Shown: positions 12,566 to 33,380 of the stretch, one piece after another
Numbering within the stretch: position 1 is the stretch's first letter
Layout: every line of letters begins with the position of its first letter
Source: Candidatus Paceibacter sp.
Lineage (GTDB): Bacteria; Patescibacteriota; Patescibacteriia; DYGC01
Direction of reading: 5' to 3'
NCBI GenBank assembly: GCA_020724925.1
Contig: DYGC01000001.1
Location: forward strand, 71,228-111,647
DNA: 40,420 nucleotides
Made by a program: the position numbers and the translations under genes
Notes under the pieces: model-generated
What the model was told of the DNA's origin: nothing
The model's input: the letters and a program-made list of their open reading frames with translations, nothing else
The model's database searches: none

Positions 12566-12677
12566 GTGTTTTGGTATTGATGCGGGGGGAAGGGCGAATA
12601 GTCAGGATAAACTCTAGCGCGAAGTGGCTGGATTGATGGATTGTGATGGGGGATTCAATTTGTTTGGGTTACGGTCT

Positions 12678-12789
12678 GTCATCCTGAACTTGTTTCAGGA
12701 TCTCTTAATTAATCCTTATTGTTTCCCTCATCGTTTAAGGACGGAATGAAGAGTTTATTGGAGAGATCCTGAAACAAGTTCAGGATGAC
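12678..12789. mobile_element. MITE-like composite palindromic element, copy A (112 bp)
   Basis: 27-nt terminal inverted repeats (gtcatcctgaacttgtttcaggatctc / gagatcctgaaacaagttcaggatgac), each itself a hairpin. Central TCCTTA...TAAGGA hairpin. Near-identical to 22618-22725. Confidence 0.6.
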
Positions 12790-12857
12790 CCATTACACCG
12801 TTTCAGGATGACCCATTGCCACGTTTCAGCATGCCCCTTACTTAGTTCAGGATGACA
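12790..12857. repeat. Degenerate tandem array of half-elements (period ~23 nt)
   Basis: caggatgacccattacaccgttt / caggatgacccattgccacgttt / cagcatgccccttacttagtt / caggatgac. Confidence 0.6.
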
Positions 12858-12865
12858 GAAAGAGT

Positions 12866-16847: not shown

Positions 16848-17831
16848 ATGGTTACGGATAAATTAACATTTGTAGATTTTTGTGCTGGCATTGGAGGTGG
16901 TAGACTTGGTTTACAGAAGCTCGGTTTACATTGTCTGGCCTTTTCTGAAATTGATAAACACGCCGAAAAAACATACAGGGAATTTTTTGGACAAGAAGAG
17001 AAGAATTATGGAGATTTAATGAAAATTAATCCTTTGGATTTGCCGAATTTTGATTTGATGATTGCGGGCTTTCCTTGCCAGACATTTTCTGTTATTGGTC
17101 AAAGAAAGGGAATGGATGATCATAGGGGACAAGTTATTTATGGTTTGATAAAGATCATGAAAGGTAAAAACTTACCATATTTTATTTTGGAGAATGTGAA
17201 AGGGTTGGTTAATCATGATGGCGGCAATTCTTTGAAAGTGATTTTGAGTGAATTGGATCGTGCGGGATATAAGGTTTTTTATAGGGTTTTGAATAGCTTG
17301 GATTACGGCGTTCCTCAAATGAGAGAAAGAATTTATTTTGTTGGTATAAGAAAAGATTTAATTAAAGACAAAACTAAAGACTTTGAGTGGCCTATCCCCA
17401 TTAAAATGCCAAATATTAAAAATTATTTAATTGATGATGGGGAATTAGAGTTTGATGACAAAAAAAGGACTTATAAAACATTTTTAAATTTTATAAATAA
17501 TAAATATAATAAGGGAAAATTTGATACCGAGGAACTTTTGCGACAAGACTACCTGGTATTGGATACTAGGCAATCAGATTTGAGATTGTATAAAGGTAAG
17601 GTTCCAACATTGCGAACCGGTCGTCATGGAATTATTTATGTTCGTAGCGGTAAATTTAGAAGACTTTCTGGTTTGGAGTCTTTGCTTTTACAGGGTTTTC
17701 CGGAAGAATTGGCTAAAAAAGTTAAGGGAAAAATAATGGACATTAAGTTGTTGAGTCAAGCAGGGAATGCTATGACTGTTAGTACTATTGAAGCAGTCGC
17801 TAGAAAATTATTTGAATATATTAAATTATAA
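16848..17831 (+). CDS. DNA (cytosine-5)-methyltransferase
   Basis: 327 aa. Motif I FCAGIGGG, motif IV GFPCQTFS, motif VI ENVKGL, motif VIII QMRERIYFVG, a TL dipeptide in the target-recognition region, and motif X QAGNAM. Confidence 0.9.
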   Translation: MVTDKLTFVDFCAGIGGGRLGLQKLGLHCLAFSEIDKHAEKTYREFFGQEEKNYGDLMKINPLDLPNFDLMIAGFPCQTFSVIGQRKGMDDHRGQVIYGLIKIMKGKNLPYFILENVKGLVNHDGGNSLKVILSELDRAGYKVFYRVLNSLDYGVPQMRERIYFVGIRKDLIKDKTKDFEWPIPIKMPNIKNYLIDDGELEFDDKKRTYKTFLNFINNKYNKGKFDTEELLRQDYLVLDTRQSDLRLYKGKVPTLRTGRHGIIYVRSGKFRRLSGLESLLLQGFPEELAKKVKGKIMDIKLLSQAGNAMTVSTIEAVARKLFEYIKL

Positions 17832-17835
17832 AAAT

Positions 17836-18597
17836 ATGAGTATTGAGAATTTAATAAAAATTGGTTCTAAAACAGCCAAAGGTGGGTTCGAAAATGAAGA
17901 TGATGTAATAGCTCGTTTTAACCAATGGCAGACGGATAGTGTTGCACAAGAGTGGCTTCGTGCGATGAATTATAATGTTTCTAATATTGAATATGTTAAA
18001 GCAGTAAAGGTTCGTGGACAGTATAAGGCTGATGTACAGGTTAGGATTAGAATTATCATAAAACTTAAATCACAAGAAGATGTACAGAATTTGCAAGTGA
18101 AACTCGTTAGTAATTCACAAGGTTTTAATCAGATAGATAAACGGTGGGTTGATAAATATGTTGAGCTTTGGGGTATCCCGGAAGACGTGTCTAGAATTTT
18201 AAAAGTTTTTACGGGGGAAATAAAAACAAAGGGGAAAAAATTGAAAGATTCTCGCAGGGTTCTGTTTTCTGAAATGGACAATAATAGTCAAAGTAAGGTC
18301 ATTAAATTTTTTGAAGATAATAAAATTTTAGTTGTTTCTGATATATTGAAGGGGCGGGGCGAATTTTCTGCTGATTGGGTTCTTGTTATTGCTAAAGTGG
18401 ATGGCGATAGTATGTGGGTTTTAAAATCTATTAATGAAGTGATGAATTTTTTTGGAGGGGGCGATGTTAGGATTACCAGGCAGGGGAGTTTGAAGATTGG
18501 TAAAATTGGAATGCAAAGAAAAGGGGGGGATGGTGGCAGGAACACTGCTAATATGCTTCAGTTTAAAATTAACCCAATGGAACTTTTTAACAATTAA
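17836..18597 (+). CDS. Type II restriction endonuclease, HinP1I/MspI-like
   Basis: I use the ATG at 17836 (MSIENLIKIGSKTAKGGFENE), 4 nt after the methyltransferase stop. It has a D-X20-Q-X-K arrangement (KADVQV...NLQVKLVSN), close to the SD-X18-Q-X-K catalytic motif reported for HinP1I. The C-terminal RKGGDGGRNTANMLQFKINPMELF matches my recollection of that family. Not verified by search. Confidence 0.6.
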   Translation: MSIENLIKIGSKTAKGGFENEDDVIARFNQWQTDSVAQEWLRAMNYNVSNIEYVKAVKVRGQYKADVQVRIRIIIKLKSQEDVQNLQVKLVSNSQGFNQIDKRWVDKYVELWGIPEDVSRILKVFTGEIKTKGKKLKDSRRVLFSEMDNNSQSKVIKFFEDNKILVVSDILKGRGEFSADWVLVIAKVDGDSMWVLKSINEVMNFFGGGDVRITRQGSLKIGKIGMQRKGGDGGRNTANMLQFKINPMELFNN

Positions 18598-22497: not shown

Positions 22498-22617
22498 GTC
22501 ATCCTGCCCCTGGATTAAGTCCGGGGTGTTTTAGTATAAGGGGGTTTTCTGTCATCCTGAAATTGTCTTGGGGGCAGGGTTTCTGTCATCTTGAACTTGT
22601 TTTGGGGCAGGGGTTAT
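22498..22617 (+). repeat. Tandem array of GTCATCCTG-containing units (~34-nt period)
   Basis: gtcatcctgCCCCTGGattaagtCCGGGG..., then ctgtcatcctgaaattgtcttgggggcagggttt / ctgtcatcttgaacttgttttggggcaggggttat, leading into copy B of the composite element. Confidence 0.6.
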
Positions 22618-22725
22618 GTCATCCTGAACTTGTTTCAGGATCCCTTAATTAATCCTTATTGTTTTCTCCGTCATTTAAGGAATGAAGAGTTTATTGGAGA
22701 GATCCTGAAACAAGTTCAGGATGAC
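22618..22725. mobile_element. MITE-like composite palindromic element, copy B (108 bp)
   Basis: Aligns end to end with 12678-12789, differing only by a few substitutions and a small indel in the central hairpin. The inverted repeat extends into the flanks here (ggggttat...ataacccc). Confidence 0.6.
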
Positions 22726-22796
22726 ATAACCCCATTATTTTCAGGATGACACTCACACAGTCTCATTCCCCCACATTTTTCTTGTTTTAAATTTTC

Positions 22797-24617: not shown

Positions 24618-24647
24618 ACTTGAAAGCTTTGTTATTTTTCTATTTTT

Positions 24648-24656
24648 TGCTATAAT
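24648..24656 (+). promoter_or_regulatory. Candidate extended -10 (TGCTATAAT) with no ORF immediately downstream
   Basis: Same 9-mer as at 15653, 22797 and 35778. It is followed by a long hairpin rather than a start codon. Confidence 0.4.
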
Positions 24657-24662
24657 AGTTTT

Positions 24663-24717
24663 AACGCGGTCACTGGCACCCTATTATCACTATAAAGGGG
24701 CACGGCCATACCGCGTT
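24663..24717 (+). ncRNA. Candidate small structured RNA / 5' leader hairpin (unclassified)
   Basis: AACGCGGT (24663-24670) pairs perfectly with ACCGCGTT (24710-24717). Inner TGGC/GCCA stem at 24674-24677/24705-24708. Begins about 7 nt after the candidate -10. No known RNA family recognised. Confidence 0.3.
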
Positions 24718-24767
24718 ACATGAGGACATCAAGAAATTGGTGTTTTTTTGTTTTTAAAAATATTTTG

Positions 24768-24800: not shown

Positions 24801-25115
24801 ATGGTAAAACATAACATCGATCTTCGTCAGTGTATGTATTGTGGCGGGAAGTTTAGTTTAGGGGAATTTAGTGGCACTTGTCCCAAGTGTTTGGTGGAAC
24901 TGGAAGCGAATGAAATTTTGGGAGCCAACGATCCGCCGGTATTTGCTGTTTTGTCCAAGAAAAAGTTTGATCGGTCTGTGGCCAATACCGAACTTTTGTG
25001 TCGAAAATGCAAAAATCCGTTTGCTTCTTGGGAGCCGTTCAGCTTGCCCCAAAATGTTTTTTGCCAAGATTGCTCGCCTGAAGAAAAGGTGGGGAGGCGA
25101 AATCGGTGGTGGTGA
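24801..25115 (+). CDS. Small zinc-ribbon protein Z1 (two CxxC...CxxC pairs), hypothetical
   Basis: 104 aa. AAGGAGG at 24788-24794, 6 nt before the ATG. Cys pairs: CMYC...CPKC and CRKC...CQDC. Confidence 0.6.
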   Translation: MVKHNIDLRQCMYCGGKFSLGEFSGTCPKCLVELEANEILGANDPPVFAVLSKKKFDRSVANTELLCRKCKNPFASWEPFSLPQNVFCQDCSPEEKVGRRNRWW

Positions 25116-25182
25116 GTCACAGCTGGTCTTTACAAAAACAAAACTTCGTGTTATTGTAAGGACAAAGGAAGGAGGTGCCGTT

Positions 25183-25425
25183 ATGGTGTCCTTATCCCAT
25201 AAACGAGCACGAAAAACCGCTATTTGTCCGCTTTGTGGCGAGACGAGTTGGCGGAGGGGTAATAATTTGATGCCGTTACGGCTTTTCCCCGCGAACAAAG
25301 ATTTGTTGGGGGAGAGTCGTTTGGTCAATATTTGCCCGGCTTGTTTGGCACAGCTTTTGGCTGTTGCCGAAGACAAGCGTTGGCTGTTCTATCTGGAGTG
25401 GCTGTATGCCAAAAACCAGCTCTAG
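25183..25425 (+). CDS. Small zinc-ribbon protein Z2, hypothetical (paralog of Z3)
   Basis: 80 aa from an internal ATG of the 24871 ORF. AAGGAGG at 25169-25175, 7 nt before the ATG. CPLC...CPAC followed by LLAVAEDKRW. Confidence 0.6.
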   Translation: MVSLSHKRARKTAICPLCGETSWRRGNNLMPLRLFPANKDLLGESRLVNICPACLAQLLAVAEDKRWLFYLEWLYAKNQL

Positions 25426-25489
25426 ACAGCGAGGGTAATTCACGAAACACCACGGCTTTTTAAAGGCCGTAAGAAATAGGAGGTTTTGA

Positions 25490-25777
25490 ATGGTTGGAAA
25501 ACATTTCTTTGCTTGTGTCGTGTGCTGTGAGGGTGAGAACCCACGGCGCTACGGCGAAGGCGAGTTCGGTTACCTGGACATCGAGCCGGTAACCGGTGAC
25601 GGGGAAATACTGTCCTCGCAACGCATTTACTTGTGTGAGGAGCACAAAAAAGCGTTGCTGTCGGTCCCGGAGGACCAGCGTTGGGATGAGTTCCAGCGTT
25701 TGCGTTTCGAGGCCCAGGACGGCGGTCCGCGGGAATACTTTCATCCCGTGGACGAAAGTGAGGGGCGTGATGACTGA
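25490..25777 (+). CDS. Small Cys-rich protein Z3, hypothetical (paralog of Z2)
   Basis: 95 aa. AGGAGG at 25478-25483, 6 nt before the ATG. CVVCC...C, then LLSVPEDQRW, which aligns with LLAVAEDKRW of Z2. Acidic tail. Confidence 0.65.
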   Translation: MVGKHFFACVVCCEGENPRRYGEGEFGYLDIEPVTGDGEILSSQRIYLCEEHKKALLSVPEDQRWDEFQRLRFEAQDGGPREYFHPVDESEGRDD

Positions 25778-25973
25778 GCCTCTCACTGAACAGAAACAGA
25801 AAACCTGTTTCCGCTGCCCCACCCCGATCCTGATCGGGCAGGTGGTGCGGGCTTTCCATCAGGGGAAGCTTGTGGAACAGGAGTTGTGCGATGCCTGCAT
25901 GGCGAAGCGCGAATATAAACTCGAAGTGCTGGCCATTCACGGCTATTGCAACATCATCCCTGAAATGGTTTAG
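25770..25973 (+). CDS. Small zinc-ribbon protein Z4, hypothetical
   Basis: 67 aa from an internal ATG of the 25596 ORF. ATGACTGA start/stop overlap with Z3 (8 nt). GAGGGG lies about 7 nt upstream. CFRC...CDAC. Confidence 0.5.
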   Translation: MTEPLTEQKQKTCFRCPTPILIGQVVRAFHQGKLVEQELCDACMAKREYKLEVLAIHGYCNIIPEMV

Positions 25974-26094
25974 GATTTCGGGGGGAGTCGGTAATTCGCA
26001 GGGTGTCTTTTAACCGAGGCGCCTTTTTTAGTTGTAAAAAATGATTTTTTGTTATAAATTTATATAGTAATTTTAAATTATTTGTCCTGTAGGC

Positions 26095-26141
26095 GAGATC
26101 CTAGATAAAAATTTTTTTACAAAAATTTTTTCTAGGATGAC
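26095..26141 (-). repeat. GTCATCC-flanked hairpin repeat (reverse orientation)
   Basis: The reverse complement reads gtcATCCTAGA...TCTAGGATctc with an AT-only apical stem. Confidence 0.65.
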
Positions 26142-26161: not shown

Positions 26162-26203
26162 GGGATTCCAGACATTTCGGCTTAGCCGAAATTCTGGAAT
26201 GAC
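26162..26203 (-). repeat. GTCATTCC-flanked hairpin repeat (variant, reverse orientation)
   Basis: The reverse complement reads gtcATTCCAGAatttcggctaagccgaaatgTCTGGAATccc, a near-perfect 17-bp stem. Confidence 0.65.
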
Positions 26204-26258
26204 GTGTTAGTCTGACCTTGTTTTTTGCAAATTTATCATTCATTCAAATATAAAAAAT

Positions 26259-28755: not shown

Positions 28756-29088
28756 ATGCTGTATTTACAACCGGAGGAGAGTGCACATCGGTGGAGATTG
28801 TCGTTTGTTGGTACGGTTTATGCCGACGACAACTTTTTTTCCAAAGTGGAAGAAGAACAGCGAAAAATGCCACCTGGTGATCGGACTCTCATTGTTGATA
28901 TTAGAAAGTTAGAGGAAATCACCAACCCCGGGCAAGAAGTTTTGTCGCATCTTTTTCAACGGATGCATGGGCATGGCTTTCGTAAGGCCAATTTGATTGC
29001 CAGGCGCCAGCAGAAGCATGTGATCAAAATTTTTGAACGGATTTTAGATCAGGTTTTTGGTCCCGATGGGACTATTTCTTGTGAATGA
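28756..29088 (+). CDS. Hypothetical protein (G+C-rich, SD-led orphan)
   Basis: 110 aa. AAGGAGG at 28744-28750, 5 nt before the ATG. Has its own terminator at 29100-29126. No family recognised. Confidence 0.6.
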   Translation: MLYLQPEESAHRWRLSFVGTVYADDNFFSKVEEEQRKMPPGDRTLIVDIRKLEEITNPGQEVLSHLFQRMHGHGFRKANLIARRQQKHVIKIFERILDQVFGPDGTISCE

Positions 29089-29250: not shown

Positions 29251-29321
29251 GCGGGATTAGTATATCGGTATTATGTCAGCTTCCCAAGCTGAAGAGGCGA
29301 GTTCGACTCTCGTATCCCGCT
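29251..29321 (+). tRNA. tRNA-Gly (anticodon CCC)
   Basis: Acceptor GCGGGAT/ATCCCGC. Anticodon arm TCAGC-ttCCCaa-GCTGA. T arm GCGAG-ttcgact-CTCGT. Discriminator U. CCA not encoded. Confidence 0.85.
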
Positions 29322-29334
29322 CCGTTCGTGTTCA

Positions 29335-29418
29335 GCCGAAGTGGCGGAATTGGCAGACGCGCATGGTTCAGGGCCATGTGGAGGTTTCTCCGTGAGGGTT
29401 CAAGCCCCTCTTTCGGCA
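29335..29418 (+). tRNA. tRNA-Leu (anticodon CAG)
   Basis: Acceptor GCCGAAG/TTTCGGC (one G-U pair). Anticodon arm CATGG-ttCAGgg-CCATG. Long variable arm. T arm GAGGG-ttcaagc-CCCTC. Confidence 0.85.
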
Positions 29419-29430
29419 CCGGTTGATGAA

Positions 29431-29507
29431 CGGGGTATAGCTCAGTTGGCTAGAGCGCATGCATGGGGTGCATGAGGTCGCACGTTCAAGTCGTGTTACC
29501 CCGACCA
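29431..29507 (+). tRNA. tRNA-Pro (anticodon GGG), CCA encoded
   Basis: Acceptor CGGGGTA/TACCCCG. D arm GCTC-agttggcta-GAGC. Anticodon arm CATGC-atGGGgt-GCATG. T arm GCACG-ttcaagt-CGTGT. 3' end ACCA. Confidence 0.85.
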
Positions 29508-32867: not shown

Positions 32868-32957
32868 TTGCTGCTTGTTTTTAAAAAACTTTTGTGTTTA
32901 AATAAAAAAGTCGGTTTTTGCTTTATATTCACCATTTTTTAGGAAAGGAGATTTGTG

Positions 32958-33380
32958 ATGTCAGTGCAAAAATTCAGAGCGATTATCCAGGATTGTATTT
33001 ATGTGCCCAGTAGTTTCCAGATTGTTCAACACGTGAAAAATGGTAGAAAGCCTCAGTCTTCACGTGGGGTTATCGGTCGGAGCCGTGGTCATGGCAATGG
33101 CGAAGTGATCGAGCCTTCCCAGTTCTTGCTGGCAGTGGATCTCGGTGTCCAGGAAGCGCCTTGGGAGCAGTATCCGGCGATTAATATCATGCCGGAGTTG
33201 CACGTTAAGTGGGAGCGCTTGACCGAGCGTCGGCAAGAAGCCCTGTTGGCGACGCAACCAATCTACTTGGAAGTGGAGGGGCGACGTTCCAACGGTGGTA
33301 ATTATTATTACACCGTTGATCAGGAACTGATTAACCAGTGGGTCGAAGCGGCTGAATTATGGCTTCGGCAACATCGGTAG
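32958..33380 (+). CDS. Hypothetical protein (G+C-rich, SD-led orphan)
   Basis: 140 aa from the ATG at 32958. AAAGGAG at 32944-32950 lies 7 nt upstream of it; the GTG at 32955 is only 4 nt from the SD. Has its own terminator. No family recognised. Confidence 0.6.
   Translation: MSVQKFRAIIQDCIYVPSSFQIVQHVKNGRKPQSSRGVIGRSRGHGNGEVIEPSQFLLAVDLGVQEAPWEQYPAINIMPELHVKWERLTERRQEALLATQPIYLEVEGRRSNGGNYYYTVDQELINQWVEAAELWLRQHR

Follow-up and report, generated by a model that had tools for sequence, protein, structure and literature searches.

The window analysed in this work is a stretch of 40,420 nucleotides from Candidatus Paceibacter sp. (assembly GCA_020724925.1, contig DYGC01000001.1), and the subject is a cluster of four small genes in it that are designated Z1, Z2, Z3, and Z4. 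The cluster is probably an accessory operon that encodes small zinc-finger proteins and is restricted to one lineage, and neither a gene for an RNA nor a recently inserted piece of foreign DNA. As the sequence-only reading had stated, all four open reading frames (ORFs) are present on the forward strand between the gene of an ABC exporter and leuS. Z1 (24801..25115) encodes 104 amino acids with a double CxxC...CxxC. Z2 (25183..25425) encodes a basic C4 zinc finger of 80 amino acids (CPLCG...CPAC...EDKRW). Z3 (25490..25777) encodes an acidic C3H zinc finger of 95 amino acids (CxxC...CxxH...PEDxRW). Z4 (25770..25973), which starts with the ATG at 25770, encodes a C4 zinc ribbon of 67 amino acids (CFRC...CDAC).

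Protein-coding evolution of the cluster

Z1 to Z4 evolve as protein-coding genes under purifying selection. The genes were compared with those of the syntenic relatives L014/L013, L012/L015, and L008; L016-L021; L009/L010; L006/L007, L023/L024, L025, and L027; and with those of the distant loci L022 and L026. The annotated frames are open across 8-10 diverged loci. The ratio of non-synonymous to synonymous substitution rates (dN/dS) is below 1 in every resolvable comparison, with pairwise values of 0.05-0.25 for Z1, 0.15-0.33 for Z2, 0.16-0.40 for Z3, and 0.06-0.8 for Z4, and the changes are in excess at third codon positions. The annotated frame is the only one of the six frames that is both stop-free and rich in synonymous changes. 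Between the window and L006, the annotated frame of Z3 exhibits 21 synonymous versus 26 non-synonymous changed codons and 0 stops, whereas its stop-free antisense frames exhibit 6 versus 41 and 1 versus 46. The antisense ORFs at 25440-25940 and 25460-25822 were rejected since nearly all of their changes are non-synonymous and their frame and length vary between loci. The substitutions follow the annotated frames, so the long ORFs in other frames and strands are what is expected from G+C-rich DNA.

The earlier reading had reckoned with homologs that lack codon-level conservation, and this is not what the substitutions show. It had also suspected a structured non-coding RNA. That suspicion does not hold as regards the coding frames and the RNA families: no Rfam match reached the gathering score in 24801-25973, and a permissive search (E up to 10) returned only chance-level eukaryotic snoRNA and miRNA matches with E of at least 0.12, far below the gathering score. 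It does hold in that the coding region exhibits a real excess of local pairing, as described below.

Zinc ligands and the paralogous fingers Z2 and Z3

The ligands of a zinc finger are present in all four proteins (eight Cys in Z1, C4 in Z2, C3H in Z3, and C4 in Z4) and are invariant in the alignments, which suggests that the proteins fold around zinc. The sole exception is Z2 of L027, in which a ligand Cys is replaced by Arg (CPLRG) and the tail is altered. The paired Cys motifs that had been reported for each ORF are thus present, with one correction, as Z3 uses a His as its fourth ligand. The ligands of Z3 are C9, C12, C49, and H52, and this His occurs in every Z3 homolog.

Z2 and Z3 are paralogs, as had been proposed. 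They match each other in BLASTP with E=9e-5 and 34% identity, the residues C, C, P, C, L, R, and W are invariant in an alignment of 12 members, and Z3 of L009 carries a Z2-like CPICG. Both paralogs differ in charge. The isoelectric point (pI) of Z2 is 8.4-9.7 in every lineage and its tail is usually rich in Lys and Arg, while the pI of Z3 is 4.5-5.7 in every lineage and its acidic tail, EY(V/F)HPVDESE, is conserved. Z2 of the relatives is 93-102 amino acids long with a basic tail (the window tail was compared with those of L006, L008, and L012). Z2 of the window is shortened by a TAG at its end (25423-25425) where the relatives have a Glu codon. This TAG is regarded as a recent nonsense mutation because the remaining basic tail, TARVIHETPRLFKGRKK up to its stop, is still readable in frame past it (25426..25479, forward strand). 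The remnant contains the Shine-Dalgarno (SD) sequence of Z3, and in the relatives the stop of Z2 lies inside that SD.

The AlphaFold2 model of Z3 has a mean predicted local distance difference test (pLDDT) score of 66 and exhibits a knuckle, a beta-hairpin (27-31/44-48), and two helices (50-57 and 61-77). This arrangement resembles a treble clef: the CxxC knuckle is followed by the beta-hairpin, and the second pair of ligands sits where a helix begins. The idea of an HNH nuclease, which was raised by weak PHROG and Foldseek matches, was rejected because the 12-member alignment has no conserved His or Asn beyond the metal ligands. Three long proteins (P0018, P0020, and P0022) with 3-6 CPxCG-x10-RWYC zinc-ribbon repeats match the C-terminal half of the Z2/Z3 profile with E of 8e-6 to 1e-3. 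They were rejected as family members, the resemblance to CPACLAQLLAVAEDKRWLCY being at the level of the motif only.

Z1 and Z4

Z1 consists of two successive CxxC...CxxC units with a C-terminal RNRWW, and its SD is AAGGAGGT. All eight Cys (8/8) are invariant in five homologs and are also kept in Z1 of L023, which is 51% identical. The RNRWW end is largely conserved; it reads SRWW in L006 and is lost in L023. Z1 is absent through independent losses in L016, L025, and L027, and it is dispensable. The AlphaFold2 model of Z1 (mean pLDDT 58.6) was too poor to be used in Foldseek. Profile-profile comparison found no relationship of Z1 and Z4 to Z2/Z3.

Double zinc ribbons such as DZR (PF12773) and Zn_ribbon_6 (PF07191) likewise have two consecutive CxxC...CxxC units. 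However, the Pfam scores of Z1 are below the cut-offs (19 bits for PF07191 with a cut-off of 25, and 14.5 for PF18912 with a cut-off of 27), and no phosphoribosyltransferase domain follows the ribbon. A double zinc ribbon is found at the N-terminus of ComF-type proteins, and this is probably the reason why one Z1 homolog is labelled 'predicted amidophosphoribosyltransferase' by JGI. Unlike ComF-type proteins, Z1 is a stand-alone protein of 104 amino acids with a conserved RNRWW end.

Z4 has a C4 ribbon and an additional conserved C-terminal Cys, and the distant loci L022 and L026 also have homologs of it. The 3' end of Z3 shares 8 nt, ATGACTGA, with the 5' end of Z4, as had been noticed before. 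A hairpin of GUGAGGGGC/GCCUCUCAC is predicted at 25758..25786 (forward strand), where it spans the stop of Z3 and the start of Z4, and in the predicted fold the SD of Z4 is paired and its AUG lies in the loop. The hairpin is predicted in the window and, with changed sequence, in L012; the fold of L006 pairs this stretch differently. The overlap and the SD-hiding hairpin are consistent with the translational coupling of Z4 to Z3 that the overlap had suggested.

Searches for known families

The earlier statement that the proteins belong to no recognised family was borne out, as no match in Pfam, NCBIfam, PHROGs, PADLOC, PDB, or Foldseek passes its threshold. The searches with the four proteins and their diverged homologs in Pfam, NCBIfam, PHROGs, and PADLOC returned only sub-threshold matches to generic CxxC knuckles. 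PDB profile searches with Z1, Z2/Z3, and Z4 returned nothing significant, and the best match (E=0.0032) was to the His-tag/CPxCG knuckle of 2k5c. PF07754 (HVO_2753-like) scored 13.1 bits against a cut-off of 33.2, with weak matches in 3 of the 12 members. PF15731 (MqsA) gave a sub-threshold match (E=0.067) in one of the 12, a Z2 homolog; no toxin family and no helix-turn-helix (HTH) were found. PADLOC-DB, searched with ten proteins, gave no passing defence match and only Csf1 (E=0.014) for one Z2 allele. The cluster also has no enzyme domain, as had been stated.

Distribution and gene content

The family comprises about 20 proteins among the billions searched, and all of them are from one Patescibacteria clade. 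A search of 5.8 billion proteins returned 3, 3, and 10 matches. In 1.84 billion representatives, 11 matches were found by a full HMMER scan, three of which are unrelated zinc-ribbon repeat proteins. The family is found in one species of Patescibacteria in GTDB. The source samples are activated sludge, and digesters are suggested by some contig names.

Every locus that was found, including those of the distant AT-rich clade, lies directly upstream of leuS. The window, L014, L012, L008, and L006 carry Z1-Z4. L009 and L023 carry Z1, Z2, and a long Z3; L009 has no Z4 ORF, and the contig of L023 ends soon after Z3. L016 has no Z1 and its Z4 is a 31-amino-acid remnant. Z1 is reduced to M-ARNRWW in L027, and only its SD and last codons are left in L025. 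The distant AT-rich L022 and L026 carry only Z3 and Z4, next to a different upstream neighbour. Z3 is the sole gene found in every locus that covers its position. Z3 and Z4 are considered the older pair because they are the sole cluster members in the distant clade, and Z2 probably arose by tandem duplication of Z3.

Searches of phages, plasmids, and viral contigs identified no relatives. Neither an integrase nor a transposase is encoded near the cluster, and no flanking direct repeats were found. The fixed site, the lack of mobile relatives, and the lack of mobility genes do not support the foreign composition and the cargo of a decayed mobile element that the sequence-only reading had offered as possibilities.

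Composition and ribosome-binding sites

The G+C content climbs from 0.35 to 0.58 along the array, and this measurement agrees with the rise that had been counted on single lines. The G+C content at third codon positions (GC3) is 0.47, 0.57, 0.65, and 0.69 in Z1, Z2, Z3, and Z4, compared with 0.39-0.43 in the ABC exporter gene and leuS. The increase is mainly at third codon positions, and the G+C content at second positions of the cluster genes is ordinary. In the distant AT-rich L022, the GC3 of Z3 and Z4 is 0.28-0.33.

All four genes have an SD, which is perfect over 7-9 nt in Z1-Z3 and is GAGG in Z4. The claim that the rest of the window lacks SD sequences has to be amended for two genes. 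Among the 35 window genes checked, including Z1-Z4, the SD is nearly absent elsewhere and was found in only 2 of the 31 others. One of them is the ORF at 28756-29088 (110 amino acids), which is conserved 3' of leuS, and the other is the ORF at 32955-33380 (141 amino acids), which has a GC3 of 0.56. Neither of these two genes has a name.

Excess local pairing

Local self-complementarity is in excess in Z2-Z4 of every lineage. The fold of 25100-25990 has a z-score of -9.2 relative to dinucleotide shuffles. Every 150-nt window in 25050-26024 has a z between -1.5 and -7.5, compared with mostly about -1.7 to +2 inside the ABC gene and leuS. The codons were also shuffled synonymously within each gene, so that the protein and the codon usage were kept. 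The z of Z2 and Z3 in this shuffle is -1.7 to -5.4 across eight lineages; it is -2.9 or lower in seven of the eight, including the AT-rich L022, and weaker in L016. The z is about -2 for Z4 and about 0 for Z1, and the mean of 17 control genes is about -0.7.

Hairpins recur at the same codons with differing sequence, namely at the CPxCG codons of Z2 and at the F(G/R)...P stretch of Z3. In Z3 the encoded peptides of this stretch are wholly different (UUCGGUUACC...GGUAACCG versus UUCCGGAG...CUUCCGGAA), and in Z2 the changes in the outer stem preserve the pairing. In L016 the palindrome GUCCACCCGGUGGAC falls on the conserved VHPVD motif. Third positions that are predicted to be paired have a GC3 of 0.63, compared with 0.38 for the unpaired ones, a contrast that exceeds that of the control genes and that is partly circular because minimum-energy folds favour G-C pairs.

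The simplest reading of the pairing excess is a stable, strongly translated mRNA. A message of this kind is also indicated by the strong SDs, in a genome mostly without them, taken together with the richness of the coding region in stems and G+C. The G+C peak would then be a consequence of the stems and not a sign of foreign origin.

Expression signals and flanking elements

A consensus scan identified a promoter-like site in the Z1-Z2 spacer at 25129..25157 (forward strand), in which TTTACA and TGTTATTGT are 17 nt apart and the -10 reads (TG)TTATTGT. This site likely starts a Z2-Z3-Z4 transcript. The spacer is conserved at the nucleotide level in all loci, and the -35 and the TGT-TATT -10 survive where Z1 is deleted (L016, L025, and L027). 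An inverted repeat (CTTTACAA/TTGTAAGG) over the promoter-like site is present in 14 loci and is not kept in L016, L023, L025, and L027, so an operator role is doubtful. The idea that Z1 is a repressor at this repeat was dropped because L023 has Z1 but no such repeat.

The scan also identified a terminator-like hairpin with a T-run at the end of the cluster (26000..26025, forward strand). All loci keep this hairpin, immediately behind Z4 or, in those that lack Z4, behind Z3. It is followed by the promoter-like TGTTATAAA of leuS.

An element of about 92 nt lies between the stop of the ABC exporter gene and Z1 (24629-24755, forward strand). It has a promoter-like TTGTTA and TGCTATAAT with a spacing of 16 nt and two hairpins, the second of which has a GNRA-type tetraloop in most relatives (GAAA, GUAA, or GGAA; GCGA in L027) that is followed by a U-run. 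A core of 23 nt is unchanged across 21 loci, even in lineages with an ABC protein of only 72% identity. The element has no Rfam match, and it could be a small RNA or a 3'-untranslated region element.

Hairpin repeats that resemble repetitive extragenic palindromic (REP) sequences are present at 26095-26141, 26165-26205, 12677-12860, and 22534-22733, and several of them end in ..GGATGAC. The window and L014 share the two repeats past the Z4 terminator, and L009 has related versions. L012, L006, and L008 lack these repeats, which are thus regarded as recent insertions beside the cluster.

Allelic variation and recombination

The alignment of the window with L014 revealed a replaced segment at 25189..25545 that covers most of Z2 and the first 18 or so codons of Z3. 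The identity in 30-nt windows is 23-73% in this segment and 97-100% on both sides of it, and Z2 of L014 is 32% identical to Z2 of the window. A smaller mismatch patch is found at 25073-25124. Other pairs of loci exhibit a similar discordance between the cluster and its flanks. The ABC exporters of L006 and L023 are 94% identical, while their Z1, Z2, and Z3 are 51%, 39%, and 49% identical. Z3 of the window is 73% identical to that of L006 and 51% to that of L012, and the ABC protein shows the opposite order (72% versus 93%). Z4 of L012 is 84% identical to Z4 of L006 and 46% to Z4 of the window. Between the window and L012, leuS has a synonymous rate (dS) of 0.16 and the ABC gene one of 0.50, whereas the rates of Z1-Z4 are 0.8-0.96; the dS values calculated for Z1-Z4 span 0.8-1.2, compared with 0.16-0.5 in the flanks. 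Deep allele classes thus persist in the population, and homologous recombination exchanges them between strains. The cluster is among the fastest-diverging and most recombined DNA in otherwise near-identical strains.

The variation is distributed unevenly in Z3. Its conserved parts are the N-terminal knuckle and the acidic tail, where the proportion of non-synonymous differences (pN) is about 0.1-0.2. The hairpin/helix region has a pN of 0.4-0.5 between allele classes, where dN/dS is noisy (0.5-2.1).

Comparison with known systems

The small CPxCG proteins of haloarchaea have been represented by Brz of Halobacterium salinarum (PMC2253796), which has a co-transcribed small basic partner, Brb (PMC3184054). 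Proteins of the Brz/HVO_2753 type (PF07754) and Z2/Z3 are alike in being tiny CPxCG-knuckle proteins without an enzymatic domain. The former act by binding or regulation, and the cluster proteins are likened to them. The brz-brb operon also combines a zinc-finger gene with the gene of a small basic protein, as Z3 is combined with Z2. However, there is no detectable homology, the host here is a bacterium, and Z2 and Z3 are mutually paralogous. The hypervariable alleles and the hairpin-rich coding DNA are features of the cluster that are not described for the haloarchaeal CPxCG proteins.

The cluster also has a likeness to type II toxin-antitoxin (TA) systems such as MqsRA. The arrangement of small, adjacent, co-translated genes (Z2/Z3 and Z3/Z4) is present, and two small, tightly coupled genes have opposite net charge. 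The N-terminal zinc domain of MqsA, which consists of CPxC and CxxC about 30 amino acids apart followed by a helix, is similar to the cluster fingers. In contrast to MqsRA, the cluster has no HTH, MqsR-like, or other toxin domain, its partners are paralogous, its chromosomal position is fixed, and the distant clade lacks Z2.

Highly structured coding regions have been tied to mRNA stability and output (10.1101/549022). The cluster resembles such genes in its excess of pairing within the ORFs, largely via synonymous sites, and in its strong ribosome-binding sites. It differs in that the signal here is computational, the antisense excess is about as strong, and allelic hypervariability is added.

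Proposed function and alternative explanations

In the accessory operon that we favour, Z1-Z4 would act as binding proteins and not as enzymes, on a target that could be a nucleic acid, a cellular protein, or a factor of a phage or host. The binding specificity would be set by the beta-hairpin/helix surface that varies in Z2 and Z3, the basic Z2 and the acidic Z3 would probably work together, and Z4 would be made in step with Z3 through translational coupling. Several observations weigh against this account. Some copies of the genes are decaying: Z2 is truncated in the window, Z2 of L027 has lost a ligand, and Z1 and Z4 have been lost repeatedly, so only Z3 may matter. The allele types of Z2 and Z3 reassort freely, which argues against a tight co-adaptation of their variable parts. 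The confidence of the Z3 model is medium and the Z1 model is unusable, and the Foldseek searches of the Z3 model against PDB and BFVD gave best E values of 0.23 and 0.15, none of them significant. Two of the 17 control genes also reach a z of about -3 in the synonymous shuffle. On the antisense strand the excess of pairing has about the same strength, so the signal is not assignable to mRNA over DNA. The base-pair registers differ between allele classes without a single conserved fold, so strict covariation is not scorable.

The foremost of the other explanations, although an unlikely one, is a role of the cluster in conflict, which could be TA-like, work against phages or against defence systems, or target the bacterium that hosts the episymbiont. 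The variable zinc-finger surface would then be under diversifying or frequency-dependent selection, and the basic Z2 and the acidic Z3 would be effector and neutraliser. The deep allele classes that are kept and shuffled between near-identical strains fit this explanation, as do the concentration of the variation in the finger hairpin/helix with its noisy between-class dN/dS, the small coupled genes of opposite charge, the repeated gain and loss of components, and the weak MqsA-antitoxin match of one Z2 homolog. However, no match in PADLOC, Pfam, or PHROGs is above threshold and no toxin-like domain was found. Z2 and Z3 are mutually paralogous, and the partners of known TA pairs are not known to be paralogs. 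The locus is fixed and neither patchy nor mobile, it has no phage or plasmid relatives, the Z2 and Z3 allele types reassort freely, L022 and L026 hold Z3 and Z4 without Z2, and the overall dN/dS is below 1. A more specific and rather improbable idea is that the cluster is a strain-specific recognition module of the episymbiont, in which polymorphic finger loops are under frequency-dependent selection against phage or host and the palindrome-dense DNA promotes cassette-like exchange or templated mutation. If this were true, it would be a new diversification route for a small binding protein that uses neither a reverse transcriptase nor an invertase.

It is equally improbable that the primary product is a structured or dual-function RNA, or that the DNA hairpins serve as recombination or replication signals, with the ORFs being secondary. 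The pairing excess is strong and lineage-wide, the hairpin positions are kept despite wholly different amino acids in Z3, the outer-stem changes of the Z2 CPxCG hairpin keep the pairing, and the VHPVD codons coincide with a palindrome in L016. Against this stand the substitutions that follow the annotated frames, the invariant ligand residues, the perfect SDs, the conserved arrangement of starts and stops, the empty Rfam search even at E up to 10, and the similar excess on both strands without a single conserved fold. As a second function beside the proteins, a role of the RNA or of the DNA hairpins is conceivable. Recent foreign DNA or the cargo of a decayed mobile element would account for the G+C content and the SDs. 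The GC3 of 0.57-0.69 compared with about 0.40 in the flanks, the SD use that is atypical for the genome, the REP-like repeats downstream, and the allelic replacement, which shows DNA entering the site, would agree with such an origin. It is nevertheless very improbable and is largely refuted already, since the same genes occur at the same position in all relatives including the distant ones, the GC3 of Z3 and Z4 is low in the AT-rich L022, mobility genes and flanking direct repeats are lacking, all known members are from one clade with no relatives in phages, plasmids, and viral contigs, and the extra G+C is concentrated in predicted stems. The least credible explanation, hardly to be entertained, is that the products are secreted, bacteriocin-like peptides. 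The products are small and Cys-rich, and an ABC exporter of 600 amino acids adjoins the cluster. However, the ABC gene is set apart from Z1 by a promoter, a small conserved element, and a hairpin that resembles a terminator. The ABC gene is absent from L022 and L026, which do have Z3 and Z4, and neither a leader nor a peptidase domain was detected. Treble-clef or ribbon spacing of CxxC pairs is typical of zinc sites inside the cell.

The genomes of Patescibacteria are small and rich in unnamed genes. In this work, four such genes are shown to be real, appear zinc-dependent from their ligands, and are tied to one site. The four proteins of 67-104 amino acids provide a short and concrete target for the study of what episymbionts vary between strains. 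Protein coding, hairpin-forming sequence, and raised GC3 overlap here in one natural case, which cautions that local G+C peaks in AT-rich genomes need not mean foreign DNA or RNA genes. The family is currently a well-described orphan family, and its importance would be greater if the variable loops recognise a phage or host factor.

Other features of the window

Three tRNA genes are located at 29251-29507 on the forward strand, namely tRNA-Gly(CCC), tRNA-Leu(CAG), and tRNA-Pro(GGG). ARAGORN identified 3 of 3, and Rfam at the gathering score identified only the first two. A DNA methylase and an R.HinP1I-like restriction enzyme are encoded between recA and cysS (16848-18597, forward strand) with a GC3 of 0.28-0.30. 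This restriction-modification pair is absent from L009 and L010, where recA is directly followed by cysS, and it is thus a strain-variable insert.

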